Below, one piece after another: positions 4,016-44,288 of a stretch of DNA of 44,487 nt. The stretch covers positions 1 to 44,487 of IMG/VR virus record IMGVR_UViG_3300049171_000067. One strand, written 5' to 3'. The notes beneath the pieces are model-generated. The model was not told where the DNA came from, did not search any database, and saw nothing but the letters and a program-made list of their open reading frames with translations. A program made the translations under genes and the position numbers. The stretch's first letter is position 1. Every line of letters starts with the position of its first letter. This stretch comes from a virus. Its lineage: Duplodnaviria > Caudoviricetes.

Positions 4016-4285
4016 AGCACCCTCACACGTGGTAAGAGTGCCCCTCAGAAGCTCATTTTATCACGTGTGGGAGCTTTCCGCAAAGGAGGAATCCCACAGT
4101 GTTAATCAACCATGTTGATTTAGAGCCATGGCCAACAGAGCCGATAAGCCGATAACTAACAATCCTGTTTAATATAAAAATCCATGTTGCGAGGTGATTC
4201 CAATGACTCGTGAACCAGCGGAGTACTAATTTTATCAAACGAAATTCAAGTAATAACAAATAAAAATTGAAATGGAGTGTTTTAC

Positions 4286-6518: not shown

Positions 6519-7007
6519 CTATGTAACAATAGCTGGTTCGATTACTTTTATTTCATCCTCATATTCGACTTCCACACCAGCCACTGGAGCAGGGACATTA
6601 CCCCATAACCACATTACTATCTCATCTAAATCATCAATATTCCCAACAAACTTATAGCCTTGATATTGAAAGCCAGCGCGTTTTTTTGATAGTTCCTCAT
6701 TATTGTTAGCATCTGCAAAGAATTTGCATGCTACTGGAGGGTAACCAAGAATCTTGCCTAGCAAGTATGTATTTTCAATTGATGGATCATTGACGGCTGC
6801 TAAGTAGTTGCTTTTAAGCTGCTCTGTTTGAAAAAACAAGATCCCAATATCGTACAAAGTGCCAGGGTTATCAAAGTCTTCTAGTTCATACTCGATGACA
6901 TGGGGGTAATTCAGGCTATGTAATTGATGGAGTATTTCACCATCGAATCGACTAGAACAAAGATAAGAGGGCTTGTACCCTTTTAAGAAAGATTCGTGTG
7001 TTTCCAT
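6519..7007 (-). CDS. Hypothetical protein (162 aa)
   Basis: ORF with LGKILGYPPVACKFF motif; followed by a hairpin and U-tract near 6490-6515 on the minus strand. Confidence 0.7.
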   Translation of the reverse strand: METHESFLKGYKPSYLCSSRFDGEILHQLHSLNYPHVIEYELEDFDNPGTLYDIGILFFQTEQLKSNYLAAVNDPSIENTYLLGKILGYPPVACKFFADANNNEELSKKRAGFQYQGYKFVGNIDDLDEIVMWLWGNVPAPVAGVEVEYEDEIKVIEPAIVT

Positions 7008-7038
7008 TGTTACACCTACTTTTAAGGAGTTGATCCGA

Positions 7039-7158
7039 TTGGCTAAGAAATATGTGTGCCCTGAATGCCGTGATGACTACGAAACAAACGAGAGTAATCC
7101 AATATGCCCAAAATGCTCTGCTAAAGAAAAGAAAAAGATCTATCTAAAAGAAAAGTAA
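7039..7158 (+). CDS. 39-aa zinc-ribbon micro-protein (CPEC...CPKC)
   Basis: TTG start with SD AAGGAG; two CxxC motifs; followed by a terminator. Confidence 0.6.
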   Translation: MAKKYVCPECRDDYETNESNPICPKCSAKEKKKIYLKEK

Positions 7159-7163
7159 AACAT

Positions 7164-7190
7164 AAGACTGGGGATTATCCCAGTCTTTTA
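7164..7190. terminator. Intrinsic terminator, possibly bidirectional
   Basis: AAGACTGGGA-TTA-TCCCAGTCTT perfect stem with T-rich tails on both strands. Confidence 0.7.
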
Positions 7191-7228
7191 TATTTCCATC
7201 CGATGTGTTTTGTTTCCCACTTGACGAA

Positions 7229-7250
7229 ATAAAAAAAGCCCCTTAGGGCT
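7229..7250 (-). terminator. Terminator closing the receptor-peptide operon
   Basis: Minus strand AGCCC-TAAG-GGGCT followed by a T-tract. Confidence 0.7.
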
Positions 7251-7281
7251 ATCGCTTCGGTGGTACTGGATCTGAACCCAT
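7249..7281 (-). CDS. Leaderless 10-aa peptide MGSDPVPPKR
   Basis: Near-perfect SD AAAGGAGGT 5 nt before ATG; lies between the propeptide stop and the terminator. Confidence 0.55.
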   Translation of the reverse strand: MGSDPVPPKR

Positions 7282-7301
7282 ATGATAACCTCCTTTCTTT
7301 C

Positions 7302-7430
7302 TTAGCAGCAGGATGGCTCAAAATAAGTTACATATTGTGTTTCGGATTGATTGTACCCGTCTCCAAAGGAAGTATTCGTTGGAGCTATACAAAGGATTGC
7401 AACGGCAATTATTGCAATAAGTGTTTTCAT
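7302..7430 (-). CDS. 42-aa secreted signalling propeptide (AimP/PapR/NprX-like) MKTLIAIIAVAILCIAPTNTSFGDGYNQSETQYVTYFEPSCC
   Basis: Translated by hand; SD GGAGGT inside the receptor 3' end, ATGA overlap with receptor stop; Sec-type signal peptide; canonical RRNPP gene order. Confidence 0.8.
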   Translation of the reverse strand: MKTLIAIIAVAILCIAPTNTSFGDGYNQSETQYVTYFEPSCC

Positions 7431-8719
7431 AATTTATGAACCTCCAATTTTTGTGTATGTAACATAAGATGTTTTTCGGAGTAAAAAAAGAACTTTTCTG
7501 TATTTTGAGTTTTGTAAACTTTTGTAAGCAATAAAATAATTGTTTCTAACTTATCACTTTGCCTGTTTTCAGCAATTTCTAGAGCAGTAAGGAGATGTTT
7601 CTCGGCTTCTTTTAATTGGTCGATACCGATATAGTAGTCACTTAGAGCAACTAAGACATTCACAAATCGATGGCCATTATAGCTGTTTTGCTGACAAATA
7701 GAAATCGCCGCATCAAAACAAGCTTTGGCTTGATTTATCTGACCTTCCGCCATATGAAATGAGCCTTTTTTTGTGTAAGCTTCAACAATGATAATTGGAT
7801 TACTTAATCGATCTTGATAGGAAAGAGCTAATTGGAAATAATCTTCTGCTTTTTTCTTTTCTCCCAAGTCTGAATAGAGAATTGCAACCAATGAAGTGAT
7901 CCAGCAGTGCTGGTCATATTTTTTGTTATCTCTAGCATATTCCAGAGCTTCTTTTGCTATCATAAGTGCGGTTGTATTGCGTGATTTGATCTTTTCCAAG
8001 AGAGATTTATATCCCAATACTTTCAATCGAACATCGGGATCGTCGATTTCATCCAGAACTAAATATAAATATTCTATATCGTCATGTGCGTAAAGAAATC
8101 TTCCCATCTTTTCTAAAAAGACACATCGATTGATACGCAGTTGATAAAAGAGCTTTGGATTTTCTCCACTTTCATCAAAGGCAGCGATAGAGTTATCAAT
8201 TGCTTTTAGTGCTCCATCTACATCGTTCAAAAAATATTTAGCATTTGCGATCACATTGTATACATAGGACAAAAGGTTGGTATGTTTTAGCTTTTTTATA
8301 TGTTTCCTTAGATACTGAATTGCCTCTTCGCCTACTTGTACTGCTTTTTTCATTTTTTTTTGAAACAGGAGTACTTTTGACTTATGAACAAGTAAGAATC
8401 CTGTATGTTCCAGATTACTTTTCATATCCTGTGGTTCTAGTTCGGCTAGAAGAGCATCTGTTGCTGGTGCTAAATCTGTCTTATGCAATAAGATCATTTT
8501 TGCATGATCCGTATCATTTGAAAGCAATAGCTTTTCTTTGATATCAAATCCGAGTTGTCGAGCAGCAGCAAAATATACTTCTTGGTCAGATACTTGTCCA
8601 AGTTCCAACCTACCAATACTGGATCTAGAAATGCCAATCAGTTTGCCTAGTTCATCTTGTGATAGTTGTTTTCTATTTCTTTCAGTTGCGATGATCATTC
8701 CCATGGATTTAGAATCCAT
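7427..8719 (-). CDS. XRE-HTH + TPR peptide receptor / transcription factor (RRNPP family, AimR/NprR/PlcR-like)
   Basis: N-terminal LSQDELGKLIGISRSSIGRLELG HTH, then multiple TPR-like repeats; 430 aa; adjacent propeptide. Confidence 0.85.
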   Translation of the reverse strand: MDSKSMGMIIATERNRKQLSQDELGKLIGISRSSIGRLELGQVSDQEVYFAAARQLGFDIKEKLLLSNDTDHAKMILLHKTDLAPATDALLAELEPQDMKSNLEHTGFLLVHKSKVLLFQKKMKKAVQVGEEAIQYLRKHIKKLKHTNLLSYVYNVIANAKYFLNDVDGALKAIDNSIAAFDESGENPKLFYQLRINRCVFLEKMGRFLYAHDDIEYLYLVLDEIDDPDVRLKVLGYKSLLEKIKSRNTTALMIAKEALEYARDNKKYDQHCWITSLVAILYSDLGEKKKAEDYFQLALSYQDRLSNPIIIVEAYTKKGSFHMAEGQINQAKACFDAAISICQQNSYNGHRFVNVLVALSDYYIGIDQLKEAEKHLLTALEIAENRQSDKLETIILLLTKVYKTQNTEKFFFYSEKHLMLHTQKLEVHKL

Positions 8720-8777
8720 TTAGCAAAACCACGCTTTCCAATAAGTATAATATACATCCTCTAAAAAACGGTTATTT

Positions 8778-8910
8778 TGGGTTGCCCAGATTTATTTTGG
8801 GTTTTGGGTAATAACAGAATATTAGGAATAGACACCCCTTGTATATCAAGGGGTTTTTAGTCAGAAAAATCAGGCATTACCCAAAACCCAGCGAAAAGTT
8901 GGGTAACCCA
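8778..8910. promoter_or_regulatory. Symmetric array of TGGGT/ACCCA half-sites upstream of the receptor
   Basis: TGGGTTGCCCA (8778), TGGGTTTTGGGTAAT (8798) inverted with ATTACCCAAAACCCA (8876), central ACCCCTTG/CAAGGGGT palindrome (8834-8854), TGGGTAACCCA (8900). Confidence 0.6.
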
Positions 8911-9099
8911 GATTTGCTTAAAACTATTGGCAAACGCTTACATAGAAACTATACTTAATTACAATATAAACCGAATATATCAAAATTAAAATTAAATTTT
9001 CTTTTTTTTGACAAAAAATATTTCATTGATGCCTTTATTTATGGAAAATGGTTCTAACTATATTGTAGTTTCAAAATGAAATGTATATAAATACCTGTA

Positions 9100-9111
9100 G
9101 AACATTTGTTT
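9100..9111. promoter_or_regulatory. Possible LexA box upstream of 9152
   Basis: GAACATTTGTTT 40 nt upstream of the ATG. Confidence 0.5.
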
Positions 9112-9151
9112 GTGTGGAGGTAAAATAAAATCACATACGAGGTGAACAAAC

Positions 9152-9472
9152 ATGAATACGATGGAAACAGAAAAAAACTACCCAGTTAAACAGTTTCTGG
9201 ATAGCATTGGTCAACAATTCAAAGTATTCGATTCAAAAAGTACTTTGGTGAAATCAAGTTACAGGAATACTCTGTATATCATGGATCGTATTTCAAAACA
9301 GAATAATATCAAGAATAAAAGAGAACTGCTAAAACAAAAAGTAATGAAGATTGAGCGGGAAACTGGTATTTACACGCTCAATGTAGAACTACTTTTACGT
9401 GAGTTATTAAAACAGGATCAAGTCAGCGTTTACGCCTTTCTAGATCAGAAAGAATTCGATCAGCTAAATTGA
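9152..9472 (+). CDS. Hypothetical protein, candidate SOS-inducible antirepressor
   Basis: SD GAGGTG; overlaps the repressor 3' end by 50 nt; function inferred from context only. Confidence 0.55.
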   Translation: MNTMETEKNYPVKQFLDSIGQQFKVFDSKSTLVKSSYRNTLYIMDRISKQNNIKNKRELLKQKVMKIERETGIYTLNVELLLRELLKQDQVSVYAFLDQKEFDQLN

Positions 9473-9785
9473 GAAAGAAATCTAATTCCTCGTCTGGGAT
9501 CTCTTTTCCTTTGTATAGAAGGGGTTTTTTAAAAAGTTCTTCTAAGTCTAAAGCTTCTTCTTTGTTATCTGTTAGTCCTGGCCGATCCGTTCTACCCATT
9601 AAATAATCTACAGTTGTTTCTAGAACATCGGCCAAATTAGACATAACCAGTTTATCCCGTGGAATTCTCCCATTCTCATAATTGGTTACCGTTGAACGTG
9701 GCTTATTAATTCTTTTCGCTAAATCTTCTTGTGTCCAATTTTTATTGATTCGTAACTCTTTGACACGATCCCCAAAAACTTTCAC
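9423..9785 (-). CDS. XRE-family repressor (CI/ImmR-like), switch 1
   Basis: FGDRVKELR...WTQEDLAKRINKPRSTVTNYENG...LADVLETTVDYLMGRTD; no peptidase domain. Confidence 0.9.
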   Translation of the reverse strand: MKVFGDRVKELRINKNWTQEDLAKRINKPRSTVTNYENGRIPRDKLVMSNLADVLETTVDYLMGRTDRPGLTDNKEEALDLEELFKKPLLYKGKEIPDEELDFFLNLADRILSDLERRKR

Positions 9786-9840: not shown

Positions 9841-9903
9841 ATGTTCTCGATAGGAACTTTTTTTTGAATTACCGTTGACAATGTTCGTTAGATGAACTAT
9901 AAT
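9841..9903 (+). promoter_or_regulatory. Early rightward promoter with GTTC-N7-GAAC operators
   Basis: TTGACA(9875)-17 nt-TATAAT(9898); GTTC-N7-GAAC at 9843 and 9883, third copy at 10153 inside cro. Confidence 0.8.
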
Positions 9904-9948
9904 AATATCAAAGGTTAGGTAATTTCGAAATGTTTGGAGGTGGAAAGA

Positions 9949-10182
9949 ATGCGGGAAGAGTTGCACAATTCTAGAAAAAAACTAAAACTTACTCAACAAC
10001 AAGTAGCCGATAGAGTTGGTATATCAAGAAGTTTTTATTGTCGTATTGAATTAGGAAAAGAAGATCCTAACCTAGAGTATGCATGCAAAATAGTACATGT
10101 TTTGAATACAAACATTGAAAATGCGTTTAATGATATTTTTTTACGCTTCGACGTTCGTTCAAGGAACAAAATAGCAGTATGA
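9949..10182 (+). CDS. Cro-like HTH protein, switch 1
   Basis: LTQQQVADRVGISRSFYCRIELG; divergent from repressor; SD GGAGGTG before ATG 9949 (track start 9934). Confidence 0.85.
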   Translation: MREELHNSRKKLKLTQQQVADRVGISRSFYCRIELGKEDPNLEYACKIVHVLNTNIENAFNDIFLRFDVRSRNKIAV

Positions 10183-14673: not shown

Positions 14674-15684
14674 TTGGCAGTATATAGACACGTGCACGTA
14701 TCATTTTGGGAAGATTCAAAAGTAGTGGAGGAAATGACACCAGAGGATAAGTTCTTTTATCTCTACTTGCTCACTAATCCAAATACAACACAAATAGGAA
14801 TCTACCCTATCACAAAAAAGAAGATGGCTTTTGACATGGGTTATTCTCTCGAAAGTGCTAACGCTTTGATAGATCGGTTTGAGAATCACCATCAGGTTAT
14901 CAAATACAACCAAGAAACAAGGGAAATAGCCCTTTTGAATTGGGGGAAATACAACCTCAATCGTGGTGGTAAACCAGTTGAGGATTGCATGAGAAAAGAA
15001 CTAAAGGAAGTAAAAGATACAAATTTGATTCAAATGGTTGCTCAAAAAGTTGGTAATGATCGTTTGAAATCCTTATATTTAGCGGCATCAGACGATACGT
15101 CACCCGATACGTCCACGACACGTACCACGATAAGTGGACAAAAAGAAAAAGAAAAAGAAAAAGAAAAAGAAAAAGAAAAAGAAAAAGAAAAAGAACCTGA
15201 TAAGCCAACTCCATCGAAAAAAGAAAAACGTCCCAAAGAAAATCTATCGTCTACCAAAGATGTTGAGACCTTTGTTGAAAAGCAAATGCTTTCCAACCCT
15301 TCGCCAATTAATAGAAAAATATTAGTTAAATATATTGATTGCTTAAGGCTCTACAGGAAAACAGCTCGAATATCCACCAACATTGTAGAAGCTGAATGGG
15401 ATAAGTGGAAGAATTTCCCCGATACAGTTGTTACATATGCAATGTTGCAACACATTGAAAGGCACCAGGACAAAGACAGAGAATATACGATCGGAATTAT
15501 GAGGAGAACTACTGAACATGAAGCAAGTAGAAAACTCATGATAATTGCCAACAAACAGGAGGGTAACAACAATGCAACCAGTAACAGCGTTTATGGCGGA
15601 TATCCAAGCGAGGTCGGAAAGAATGAAAGCACATCTGAGGGAACAGGTTACTACGACCAATTCGATGGACTCTTTGCAAACTAA
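14674..15684 (+). CDS. Phage replication initiator (replisome organiser)
   Basis: MAVYRHVHVSFWED...MTPEDKFFYLYLLTNP N-terminus typical of Bacillota phage initiators; directly upstream of a DnaC-like loader. Confidence 0.85.
   Translation: MAVYRHVHVSFWEDSKVVEEMTPEDKFFYLYLLTNPNTTQIGIYPITKKKMAFDMGYSLESANALIDRFENHHQVIKYNQETREIALLNWGKYNLNRGGKPVEDCMRKELKEVKDTNLIQMVAQKVGNDRLKSLYLAASDDTSPDTSTTRTTISGQKEKEKEKEKEKEKEKEKEPDKPTPSKKEKRPKENLSSTKDVETFVEKQMLSNPSPINRKILVKYIDCLRLYRKTARISTNIVEAEWDKWKNFPDTVVTYAMLQHIERHQDKDREYTIGIMRRTTEHEASRKLMIIANKQEGNNNATSNSVYGGYPSEVGKNESTSEGTGYYDQFDGLFAN
15091..15195 (+). repeat. Probable lytic origin inside the initiator gene: four CGATACGT-like iterons plus (AAAGAA)x9
   Basis: CGATACGT 15093 and 15105, CGACACGT 15116, CGATAAGT 15128; perfect hexamer tract 15142-15195 encoding (KE)9. 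Confidence 0.65.
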
Positions 15685-16441
15685 CTTTGATTGCCTGAAA
15701 TGCAAAGATGAGGGTTATATTCTCGATGGGTGGACAGCAACAGAATGTACTTGCTTGATGAAGAAGCGTTATCAAACAAGGCTAAAGGGAGCGATGATTC
15801 CTGAAGAATTTGAAGATGATACGTTGGATAGTTACAAAGTCGCTGATCCAACACAGAGAATATTGCTGGATGCTGCTAAACAGTATCTAGCGGAATATGA
15901 CGATATCAAAGATAACTCTAGTAATGGACTTGGCTTCTTGGCTACATATGGAGAACAGAGATTAAATGCTATCCGAGATTTGGATAAGAAAAATATGATT
16001 AAACAAAAACATAATAGCTATGGATTGGGGAAAACACATCTCCAAGTAGCCATTGCAAAAGAGTTGCTAAAGCAAGATGTTGCTGTTTTGATCGTGTCTG
16101 ATGCGATTATCATGGATGAGATGATGGCTTATAAGTCGGATAAAGAGAACAAAGATTTATACTATCGGAAGTTTGATGCATTGGTGAATGTTCCTGTTCT
16201 GATTTGGGATGACATTGGTAAATCCAATTCCAGTGAAGCCAAACGGACTATGTATTTTAACATCATCAACGAACGGTACAAAAAGAAAAAAGCGATCATC
16301 TTCAGCTCCAACGAAGATCGATACACATTAGAAAGCAGAATAGGAGATGCAGCCGCATCCAGATTGTTCAGCATGGCAAAGGGACGTATTTATCGAGTAG
16401 AGGGACAAGATTATCGATTACTTGGAAAGAGGGCGGTCTAA
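15572..16441 (+). CDS. DnaC/IstB-like AAA+ helicase loader
   Basis: CLKC...CTC Zn site, GLGKTHL Walker A, VLIWDDIG Walker B, IINERY; SD GGAGG before ATG 15572. Confidence 0.9.
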   Translation: MQPVTAFMADIQARSERMKAHLREQVTTTNSMDSLQTNFDCLKCKDEGYILDGWTATECTCLMKKRYQTRLKGAMIPEEFEDDTLDSYKVADPTQRILLDAAKQYLAEYDDIKDNSSNGLGFLATYGEQRLNAIRDLDKKNMIKQKHNSYGLGKTHLQVAIAKELLKQDVAVLIVSDAIIMDEMMAYKSDKENKDLYYRKFDALVNVPVLIWDDIGKSNSSEAKRTMYFNIINERYKKKKAIIFSSNEDRYTLESRIGDAAASRLFSMAKGRIYRVEGQDYRLLGKRAV

Positions 16442-41474: not shown

Positions 41475-41789
41475 CAACTAATGCGAGAATCTATGAAACT
41501 ATCATCCACTTGTCGCAGGATGTAAATATTGGTAGAATCATAGGCAGTAAAATAAACCAACAAAAAAATAAAAGCGCCTTGCTGGGAACAAGGACGCCGC
41601 ACTTCGTAAAGTAGTCGCTGACAACAACTGCTTTACATTTAATCAAATTTATCACCACAATTGTAACGAATTTCTATTTAGTGGTCAATACACAAAAAAG
41701 AAAAACGACCATGACAATTGTATGTATACATCTAGAAGTAAAACGTGCGGCGGTCCTCTCCAGTAAGGCTAATGGGAGAGGTATTTGGC

Positions 41790-42743
41790 ATGGCTAAAGA
41801 AAGATTTATCAATGCAAGACGTAGCGGATTTACAACTATTATCAATTCAATGTTAGATGATCCAGAGCTATCTTTACAGGCAAAAGGTCTTTTATCTATC
41901 TTTTTATCAAATTCGAATGACTGGGAAATACACATGAAAGAAATTATCAAGCGTTCCAAAAATGGTAGAGATGCACATTACAAGGCAATAAACGAACTTA
42001 TTGAAAACGGATACTTCTTTAGAACTCAAGTGATGGAAAAAGGAAAGTTCAAAGAGATGATATACATATTCAGCGACAACAAAGAGGATGTACAAGAAGC
42101 AATGAAACAGCTTGATAAACAAGGACTTCTACCGCATACGGAAAATCAGGAAACGGAAGAAAAAAAACCGTTTCCTGAAAAACCGGATACGGGAAAACCG
42201 GATACGGAAAATCAGGACAATAATAATACTAAGGTTAATAAACCTAATACTAAAAATACTAAATCTAGTATGTATGTAAGTACTGATGCTGATAAATCAT
42301 CTATTGAAATTTACAAAGAAAATTACAAGCTTACCAAGTATGCAAAGACGAAACTAGAATCTTTTATTGAAACTCATGGAGAAGAACTAACAAAACTTGC
42401 TGTAGAGCGTACAGTCAAAAAAGGTAAAGAAGAAAACATGATTGCATACATAGAAGGCATGTTGAAAAATTGGGCTAAATTAGAATTGAAATCAATCCTA
42501 GAAGTAGAAGCCCATGAGAAAAAGCATTGGAAGGATAAGAAAAAACCCAAAAGCAAAAAGAAGCAGATAAAGGAAGGTAACCTACCAACTTCAATAGCTG
42601 CACAAAACGAGATCCAAAAGGGATCACTGGAAGCAGCATCAGGAAAAGAAGAAGAAATGACAGATGAAGAGTTAATGGCAATGCGTGCGGAATCTTTGCG
42701 TATTTTAGAAGAAGGACGCGAGCAATTTTCGCCAATAGATTAA
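41790..42743 (+). CDS. Second replication initiator (winged-HTH N-terminus, DnaD-like C-terminus), candidate plasmid Rep
   Basis: FTTIINSMLDDPELSLQAKGLL...DW...AINELIENGY; AYIEGMLKNW; internal iterons; SD GAGAGGT. Confidence 0.8.
   Translation: MAKERFINARRSGFTTIINSMLDDPELSLQAKGLLSIFLSNSNDWEIHMKEIIKRSKNGRDAHYKAINELIENGYFFRTQVMEKGKFKEMIYIFSDNKEDVQEAMKQLDKQGLLPHTENQETEEKKPFPEKPDTGKPDTENQDNNNTKVNKPNTKNTKSSMYVSTDADKSSIEIYKENYKLTKYAKTKLESFIETHGEELTKLAVERTVKKGKEENMIAYIEGMLKNWAKLELKSILEVEAHEKKHWKDKKKPKSKKKQIKEGNLPTSIAAQNEIQKGSLEAASGKEEEMTDEELMAMRAESLRILEEGREQFSPID
42132..42216 (+). repeat. Iterons inside the second initiator gene (candidate plasmid origin)
   Basis: 15-bp-period CCGGATACGGAAAA / CAGGAAACGG repeats and an inverted CCGTTTCCTG, followed by an AT-rich tract. 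Confidence 0.65.
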
Positions 42744-43478: not shown

Positions 43479-44288
43479 TTACTCTGTTCCTAATATTGGA
43501 GTTGCTTTGTGGCCAGCAAGGAAAGGTGTTTCTTCTCCTTCAACGAATGCGTACATCATCGGCATTTCATCTGGTAACTTCATCGGAAGTTTACGCTTTT
43601 TAATCTCTTCCTCCATTTTGATGAGGTACGTTCCAATTGCTTCTTGGGCTTTTCTAGTAATAAGGTTCACTCTTGAATCTCTGGTAGTTACCCATGTAAT
43701 CGGGAAGAGTTTTCCGACCATTACAGCTAACATCATATAACGATGAATCTTTGTTTCTATTTTTCCGCCATTCTCTGATCCAGTGTCAAATTCAAGCAGG
43801 TGGCTACTGTCTTTAAGCTTTATCATAGCATCAGGGTTAACTGGCGATTTCTTTGGTTTCATTTGATAGTGCAGGAACGACATTGTGTCTCTGGTGGAAT
43901 ACCAGTTTTCAACAGGCAAACCAGCCTGAAAAGCTCGGCATAAGATTCTATTAGTCCCCATGAAATGACCAATTTGACCTCTGATAGATAATTCATCTTC
44001 TTCATATCCAAGTGCATCATCCCTCATAGCTTTCACATGCTGGATTCCTTTTTCTCCTAAAGTGTAGACGTATGGTGATCGATACTTTGGTCGCCAGGTA
44101 ATCAGATAATTCTTTCCTAGTGTCCGAATTCTTTGCAAAGCTCCATGTATTTGATTACTGGACCATCCAGTTACAATCTGCAATGTTTTTTGGTCCGTAA
44201 TTCGAAGACTGAAAATGACCCCCATCAATGTATCTGTCATGTTTCTGTATTCATATTCGCTTGGTTTTTCTAACCAGTGTGCAAGCAT
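43479..44288 (-). CDS. Replication-relaxation (Replic_Relax)-family protein, winged helix plus PD-(D/E)xK-like domain
   Basis: YVYTLGEKG, H...N, VNPDAMI...LLEFDTGSE...IETKIHRY; SD AAGGAGG. Confidence 0.75.
   Translation of the reverse strand: MLAHWLEKPSEYEYRNMTDTLMGVIFSLRITDQKTLQIVTGWSSNQIHGALQRIRTLGKNYLITWRPKYRSPYVYTLGEKGIQHVKAMRDDALGYEEDELSIRGQIGHFMGTNRILCRAFQAGLPVENWYSTRDTMSFLHYQMKPKKSPVNPDAMIKLKDSSHLLEFDTGSENGGKIETKIHRYMMLAVMVGKLFPITWVTTRDSRVNLITRKAQEAIGTYLIKMEEEIKKRKLPMKLPDEMPMMYAFVEGEETPFLAGHKATPILGTE

Follow-up and report, generated by a model that had tools for sequence, protein, structure and literature searches.

A predicted RRNPP-kind peptide-receptor unit with a Cys-Cys propeptide and a leaderless micro-ORF on a putative Thermoactinomycetaceae phage-plasmid

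Described peptide-receptor systems

Signals of the RRNPP route are made as propeptides which are exported, trimmed and re-imported (PMC9765709, available text). Among the described systems, NprR-NprX of the Bacillus cereus group resembles the locus presented here in combining a helix-turn-helix (HTH) domain and a long TPR superhelix with a downstream propeptide, predicted here to be secreted. The locus is located in a 44,487-nt stretch of viral DNA (IMG/VR record IMGVR_UViG_3300049171_000067), referred to below as the window. In contrast to NprR-NprX, it is element-borne, has a ligand candidate of the [DE]PxCC type and includes a second, leaderless gene. The arbitrium system (AimR-AimP-AimX of SPbeta and phi3T) also associates a receptor carried by a temperate element with a coupled propeptide beside a lysogeny switch, and its purpose is likely similar. 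In phi3T, aimX is found behind aimP and a terminator between them is overridden by the receptor (PMC10769878, available text). The window differs in that no terminator-separated aimX follows the peptide gene and in that candidate operators are found upstream of the receptor.

Leaderless communication peptides (LCPs), such as that of RopB-SIP, are encoded by ORFs comparable to those described here: 7-10 codons, led by a ribosome-binding site (RBS) and adjoining an RRNPP receptor. In the available text of Aggarwal et al. 2023 (PMC10518010), LCPs are mostly hydrophobic, are tied to the RopB clan and none is found in phages or prophages. Micro-peptides of the window type, in contrast, are polar, contain proline and occur on phage-plasmids, in the window behind a leader-bearing propeptide. 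Membership of the RopB clan was rejected, since no Rgg model appears among the profile matches of the receptor and the micro-peptide is polar and Pro-rich. PrgX (pCF10), a single receptor for two peptides of which one activates and one inhibits (PMC9765709, available text), provides a model for the two-peptide logic proposed below. However, PrgX peptides are exported and usually encoded away from the receptor (same source), whereas both candidates of the window are in the receptor operon and one is leaderless.

The receptor family is probably that of candidate 'subfam_17' of RRNPP_detector (Bernard et al. 2023, PMC10075063), the two being compared by bacterial family and size only. As far as the source is available, subfam_17 consists of HTH-TPR receptors (432-476 aa) from Thermoactinomycetaceae; Sec propeptides accompany some of them, and others are listed as 'loose', with 12-13-codon ORFs carrying a strong RBS. 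Homologues of the window receptor come from the same bacterial family and size range, including K. pulmonis QKG83307.1. In contrast to the window, all 17 receptors in the available supplement rows are chromosomal and are given as coordinates without peptide sequences. The plasmids of Staphylospora marina and pTvu19 (see below) are absent from these rows, none of whose accessions recurred in 30 homologue look-ups. In the main text, as available, 'cystein' is absent and Thermoactinomycetaceae are named once, in an unrelated context.

The receptor and its peptide genes

The initial annotation had described an RRNPP-like communication module in which a 430-aa HTH-TPR gene is coupled to a 42-aa ORF. 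Both genes are indeed on the minus strand and overlap by ATGA (Table 1), and this two-gene layout stands, while a leaderless third gene and operator-like palindromes had been overlooked. RRNPP_detector looks for a receptor of 250-500 aa with TPRs and an N-terminal HTH, together with an SD-led ORF of 10-100 aa within -60 to 400 bp. At this locus a TPR protein of 430 aa with an N-terminal HTH adjoins a 42-aa ORF at offset -4 preceded by GGAGG, in agreement with the RRNPP layout.

Table 1. Features of the unit and of its upstream region in the window (L002, S. marina plasmid; L004, close relative of the window)
Feature	Position	Strand	Remark
Bidirectional terminator-like hairpin	7164..7187	.	next gene convergent
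Intrinsic-terminator-like hairpin and U-run	7237..7250	(-)	closes three-gene unit; near-identical hairpin behind L004 micro-ORF
Leaderless 10-codon micro-ORF MGSDPVPPKR	7249..7281	(-)	counterparts in L002 (31152) and L004 (5137)
Micro-ORF ribosome-binding site AAGGAGG, spacer 7	7289..7295	(-)	
42-aa propeptide, Sec-type leader (by hydropathy), ends EPSCC	7302..7430	(-)	ATGA overlap with receptor stop
Propeptide ribosome-binding site GGAGG, spacer 10	7441..7445	(-)	within last receptor codons
HTH-TPR receptor, 430 aa	7427..8719	(-)	Thermoactinomycetaceae RRNPP-type family, 'CC clade'
Palindrome TGGG-N3-CCCA, candidate operator	8778..8788	.	near receptor's own promoter region
64-nt imperfect inverted repeat, 7 TGGGT/ACCCA half-sites	8778..8910	.	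surrounds hairpin 8834-8854
Second TGGG-N3-CCCA palindrome, candidate activator site	8900..8910	.	16 nt before a -35 element
Promoter-like site, 10/12 consensus match, faces divergent ORF	8927..8955	(+)	region holds such sites at chance frequency
106-aa ORF, no known family, candidate output	9152..9472	(+)	divergent from receptor; overlaps repressor 3' end by 50 nt
CI-like HTH repressor	9423..9785	(-)	
Cro-like HTH	9934..10182	(+)	behind perfect sigma-A consensus promoter 9875-9903

The receptor includes HTH_3 (PF01381, residues 11-61, E 3e-7), TPR_12 (E 9e-16) and TPR_MalT (E 3e-14) domains. The best RRNPP structural match of its AlphaFold model (pLDDT 94) is NprR-NprX (Z 25.7, rmsd 5.1, 339 aligned, 11% identity), ahead of Rap phi105 (Z 23.6), RapI (22.8), the weaker match AimR (19.6) and PlcR (17.2). 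Such an NprR-like score is not specific, since unrelated TPR proteins match the model equally (APPBP2, Z 26.8; MalT, Z 25.5), and generic TPR proteins dominate PDB searches by sequence and by Foldseek. In the family alignment Asn148 is the commonest residue of its column (110/115), as is Asn197 (71/115). Such Asn residues in RRNPP receptors contact the peptide backbone. The AimR model NF038310 does not match the receptor and is above its cut-off in none of three records; with neither this match nor a terminator-separated aimX slot, the affiliation to arbitrium suggested initially is not retained. Two Logan contigs contain positions 6900-9300 with zero differences but are not independent support, because they are possibly the source of this DNA.

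The propeptide has a basic N-terminus with one Lys, followed by an 11-residue hydrophobic core of mean hydropathy 3.49. It has no lipobox match and was therefore not taken to be a lipoprotein. It terminates, as had been read, in QYVTYFEPSCC, and Cys accounts for 0.93% of residues in the long ORFs of four element records. The vicinal cysteines had been singled out from this sequence only; they are a conserved trait of one receptor clade, present in two distant plasmid relatives. The S. marina plasmid carries a 43-aa leader-bearing ORF, missing from the PLSDB gene table, which overlaps the receptor gene and ends in DPKCC. On the Thermoactinomyces vulgaris plasmid pTvu19, a receptor fragment overlaps an annotated 51-aa hypothetical protein ending in EPSCC; this tail is identical to that of the window while the remainder of the propeptides differs. 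The pTvu19 receptor gene is cut at the record origin and its 5' part was not found at the other record end, which may reflect sequence missing from the assembly or a truncated gene.

All three members of the clade with DNA at hand have the CC end, as against none of the eight propeptides from other receptors whose end is known, these eight representing only about four lineages. The clade has 15 members; the remaining 12, for example WP_198050768.1, WP_198059795.1 and WP_198065147.1, are covered here by protein sequence. It unites the three CC receptors with a support of 96 among 91 rows and of 100/99 among 31 rows, the latter being picks from the 91-row tree and two further matches; C-terminal tails were cut from tail-bearing rows for these trees. 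The place of the window receptor inside the clade is unsure because its branch is long, and although the window and S. marina receptors belong to the same clade, they are only 23-25% identical. No cysteine column is common to these two full-length CC receptors, and a covalent disulfide between receptor and peptide was rejected on this ground. A chemical role of both thiols, through oxidation or binding of metals once the peptide is outside and beyond a mere specificity code, is possible, at somewhat less than even odds. No paper on Cys-Cys RRNPP peptides was found in a literature search in which subscription journals were largely outside the scope.

The third gene and its AAGGAGG site begin beyond the CC stop, 20 nt separating the propeptide from the micro-ORF, whose stop runs into the terminator hairpin. 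With 10 codons, this RBS and no leader, it has the properties of an LCP-type ORF. The counterpart in the same slot of the S. marina plasmid is MSGEPIGG. In L004, MGDPRDG is the sole peptide gene and there is no leader-bearing propeptide. In all three records (window, S. marina, L004) the micro-ORF has AAGGAGG and is immediately followed by a terminator hairpin; no micro-ORF is found behind the CC propeptide of pTvu19. SD-led ORFs of 5-20 codons number 24 in four records (22,455 of the 42,965 bases of L004 being taken in), and five of these have [DEN]P near their end, three of which occupy the post-receptor slot. The window micro-peptide overshoots the family register described below by two residues (D-P plus five). 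A leaderless micro-ORF on phage-plasmids, behind a leader-bearing propeptide, is new relative to the literature searched.

Two further micro-ORFs were observed. One, at 4203-4229 (+) of the window, 3 kb from the module, is SD-led, reads MTREPAEY with an exact E-P-x-x-x end and may be due to chance. The other (L004:5672-5701, MLLGDPSDA) is followed by a terminator-like hairpin and lies 0.5 kb behind MGDPRDG, giving two leaderless peptides for one receptor.

The micro-ORF might be regarded as an effector of the AimX type, acting on another phage or host protein within an arbitrium-like logic, in view of the position of the module beside the immunity region and of the bicistronic aimP and aimX of phi3T, where AimX is a small peptide (PMC10769878, available text). 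This is very unlikely: the gap of 20 nt that separates the two peptide genes showed no terminator and one follows the micro-ORF instead, the micro-peptide has the ligand motif and stands in for the propeptide in L004, and the receptor has no AimR model match. Indeed, the aimP-terminator-aimX arrangement is not present, because two terminators and then a convergent gene follow the peptide genes.

The ligand motif across the receptor family

A phmmer scan with the receptor identified, at E <= 1e-10, 137 proteins, of which those of full length are about 20-30% identical to it, and 114 near-full-length homologues were retained in the family alignment from 149 non-self matches listed. Among 30 homologues looked up, every one with a named organism was from a Thermoactinomycetaceae genus (Lihuaxuella, Staphylospora, Kroppenstedtia, Thermoactinomyces, Desmospora, Paludifilum, Salinithrix, Melghirimyces, Baia or Paenactinomyces, most of which we take to belong to this family). 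There was no receptor match among INPHARED phages, and viral scans with the receptor, P0152 or A11 gave no usable relative (one HTH-only match and one false positive). Word-index homologue searches returned the receptor itself and that of L004 only.

Seventy loci, together with the window, L002, L003, L004 and L087 (pTvu19), provided 35 family receptors when weaker HTH-only matches were ignored, and 11 with a cut-off 3' end were dropped. An adjacent propeptide, expected of homologous receptors in the initial annotation, is indeed frequent: 12 of the 24 complete loci have one of the leader type (in L097 with a degenerate leader). A further six have a leaderless micro-ORF only, one (L114) has a fused tail and five have no peptide gene. 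The end [DEN]-P-x-x-x is found in 8 of the 11 propeptides whose end is known, that of L098 running off its contig, and the other three lack the motif at their end. It is also carried by four of the six micro-ORF-only loci, one ending at DPP, and not by the other two. Micro-ORFs without a propeptide accompany the receptors of L004, L089, L108 and L116. In the third group the motif forms the end of the receptor itself: 18 of the 114 homologues end in [DE]PPx1-3 (mean 0.04 and maximum 2 in 2000 shuffles), and in 11 of the 18 an in-frame Gly-Gly then Met corresponds to the footprint expected of GGAGG and ATG. Sixteen of the 18 group with L114 in one clade (19 rows, support 99), so this fusion of motif and receptor has long been maintained. 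The motif is also fused to the end of the L114 receptor, with an in-frame SD and ATG upstream. The AlphaFold model of this receptor, in which the linker has a pLDDT of about 50 and the final motif 69-76, is suggestive of a disordered linker with confidence regained at the last residues, as would fit docking. In the fused-tail receptors, where an RBS and ATG are often nested in frame, a tethered ligand could possibly be combined with an independently translated copy.

The family motif [D/E/N]-P-x-x-x-COOH exists in three encodings, secreted, leaderless and receptor-fused, and these three forms of one motif are new relative to the literature searched. This search, again with subscription journals largely outside its scope, found no paper on the peptide code of the family or on receptor-fused ligands. 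The likely propeptide core E-P-S-C-C falls in this family-wide register, its cysteines therefore taking the two final positions of the motif. The mature signal, placed at the C-terminus in the initial annotation, is likely a short peptide ending in E-P-S-C-C, and a peptide of the EPSCC type is very probably the ligand of the receptor.

These data bear on two simpler readings. A TPR regulator with chance small ORFs and no signalling is extremely unlikely: although no protein found exceeds 20-30% identity to the receptor, the leader, the register and the CC ending are conserved across records and the motif enrichment is far above shuffles. The other reading, an ordinary single-peptide RRNPP pair in which CC is only a clade specificity code and the micro-ORF a redundant or vestigial pheromone duplicate, has more in its favour, namely the position of CC in the variable last two slots of the register, the missing micro-ORF of pTvu19, the duplicated pheromone genes of Rap systems (PMC9765709, available text) and the two full-length CC receptors with no common cysteine. 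It is nevertheless unlikely, since the strong RBS and slot of the micro-ORF are maintained in two records with receptors 23-25% identical, the leaderless format stands alone in L004, L089, L108 and L116, and the window and pTvu19 have the same EPSCC tail on otherwise different propeptides. The balance is slightly in favour of a micro-ORF that is translated and binds the same pocket where, by analogy with PrgX, it would most likely oppose or prime the secreted signal. Some 'eavesdropper' receptors are perhaps not peptide-less, because peptide genes fall below the 10-codon floor of current detectors.

Several variant forms were observed. The receptors ending in D/E-P-P-x-x are P0018, P0023, P0028, P0031, P0035, P0038, P0056, P0063, P0065, P0070, P0084, P0091, P0097, P0105, P0110, P0122, P0125, P0151 and that of L114 (L114:2974-4365); the Paenactinomyces protein WP_181750302.1 is one fused member. 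The propeptides behind the receptors of L101 and L098 have tandem 7-residue repeats of the TSAFPGP type (about seven in L101), a 'chatterer' form. In L097 (4318-4434) a DPVHI end is kept while the hydrophobic leader has decayed relative to L099, possibly an intermediate between the secreted and leaderless forms.

The upstream region, its output and the element

The exact palindrome TGGG-N3-CCCA is present in two copies in the 44.5 kb, both inside the same 432-nt intergenic stretch, and none of 5000 shuffles repeats such a palindrome. This gap holds seven half-sites against 0.48 expected per 432 nt, while one-mismatch palindromes are at chance level (8 found, 5.6 expected). In L004 the divergent ORF is retained (50% identity) beside a different receptor, and the palindrome is absent from the 22 kb examined; a palindrome that belongs to the receptor would be expected to disappear when the receptor is swapped. 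The palindromes are probably operators of the receptor.

The equivalent slots of L004 (3900-5123) and of the window (7427-8719) carry receptors of different clades, the sensor cassette appearing to have been exchanged together with the palindromes. The region upstream of the S. marina receptor (L002:29447-29574) contains candidate operators of its own, namely repeated GGTCA half-sites and a GGTCAATTGACC palindrome.

As had been noted, the module is next to the immunity region, the repressor-like and Cro-like genes being located about 0.7-1.5 kb from the receptor start, and the receptor adjoins the repressor in all three phage-plasmids. The end of the repressor gene is likewise overlapped by a divergent ORF in L004 (by 53 nt) and in S. 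marina (by 8 nt), the S. marina ORF showing no likeness by eye to that of the window. We infer that the receptor controls the divergent transcript, whose effect on the repressor would come either from an antirepressor protein or from antisense interference. Whether the output is this repressor switch rather than the transfer genes is evenly balanced. An output in plasmid functions (copy control or the relaxase/ATPase genes for transfer), or on a host sporulation protein via an NprR/Rap-like N-terminal bundle, is rather doubtful. In its favour, the CC system is present on pTvu19, with no annotated virion genes, an ATPase and replication-relaxation pair is common to the S. marina plasmid (40% and 35% identity), and the nearest folds are NprR and Rap, which target Spo0F or transfer (PMC9765709, available text). 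However, no exact copy of the palindrome is found near the transfer genes of the window, and the common position of receptor and repressor also speaks against this reading. The output may differ between elements, as suggested by pTvu19, which has neither annotated virion genes nor a divergent ORF.

Judged on its sequence, the module is a real, conserved peptide-receptor unit of the RRNPP kind, not arbitrium proper. With a probability of roughly 0.6, the three genes form an RRNPP-type sensor in which a population signal would be balanced against one made inside the cell. The propeptide would be exported, trimmed, re-imported and then bound in the TPR groove, and the re-imported EPSCC peptide would report the number of cells carrying the element. 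The leaderless D-P peptide, from the same transcript, would remain in the cell, take the same groove and either fix the threshold or oppose the outside signal. Through both palindromes upstream of it, the receptor would act on the divergent gene, which is convergent with the phage repressor, and the vicinal thiols would meet oxidation or metals only while the peptide is outside the cell. A broader proposal is speculative and rather less probable: Thermoactinomycete elements might share a thiol-gated [DE]PxCC language with cross-talk between unrelated elements, with the receptor also taking a leaderless in-cell peptide and the three encodings leading by natural steps from self-regulation to signalling between cells.

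For this RRNPP family a likely ligand code is now defined, from which synthetic peptides can be designed. Were the signal gated by its cysteines, element density would be read together with redox or metal state by one intracellular quorum system and, were the micro-gene a second ligand, a single operon would encode one public signal and one private signal. Through the fused-tail and leaderless forms it becomes possible to test how peptide communication arises from, or decays into, self-regulation.

The initial annotation had placed the module on a phage-plasmid, and the element agrees with this. PHROGs matches among 18 proteins scanned include terminase, portal, major head, tape measure, Dit and endolysin; a replication initiator, ParA and a serine recombinase of the resolvase type are present as well. 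The sole plasmid match of the receptor in the plasmid search is the 45-kb circular S. marina plasmid (23% identity), which has head and tail genes, ParA and an ATPase/replication-relaxation pair like that of the window. Since the window has both phage and plasmid genes and the S. marina plasmid is alike, we infer a Thermoactinomycetaceae phage-plasmid. L004, the only relative found in neighbour-gene scans, is close (ATPase 76% identical, flanking genes 50-84%) except for its receptor (22%). Phage structural genes are absent from the annotation of pTvu19. No mating-pair genes were recognised among the window proteins scanned and no terminal repeat was found at the window ends. The 854-aa HerA/VirD4-like ATPase and the replication-relaxation-like protein (58-2622 and 43479-44288) would be adjoining if the record is circular, as they are in S. 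marina and L004. Two replication modules, as expected for a phage-plasmid, are located at 14674-16441 (phage-type initiator and ATPase-motif gene) and 41745-42743 (plasmid-type DnaD/Rep beside ParA).
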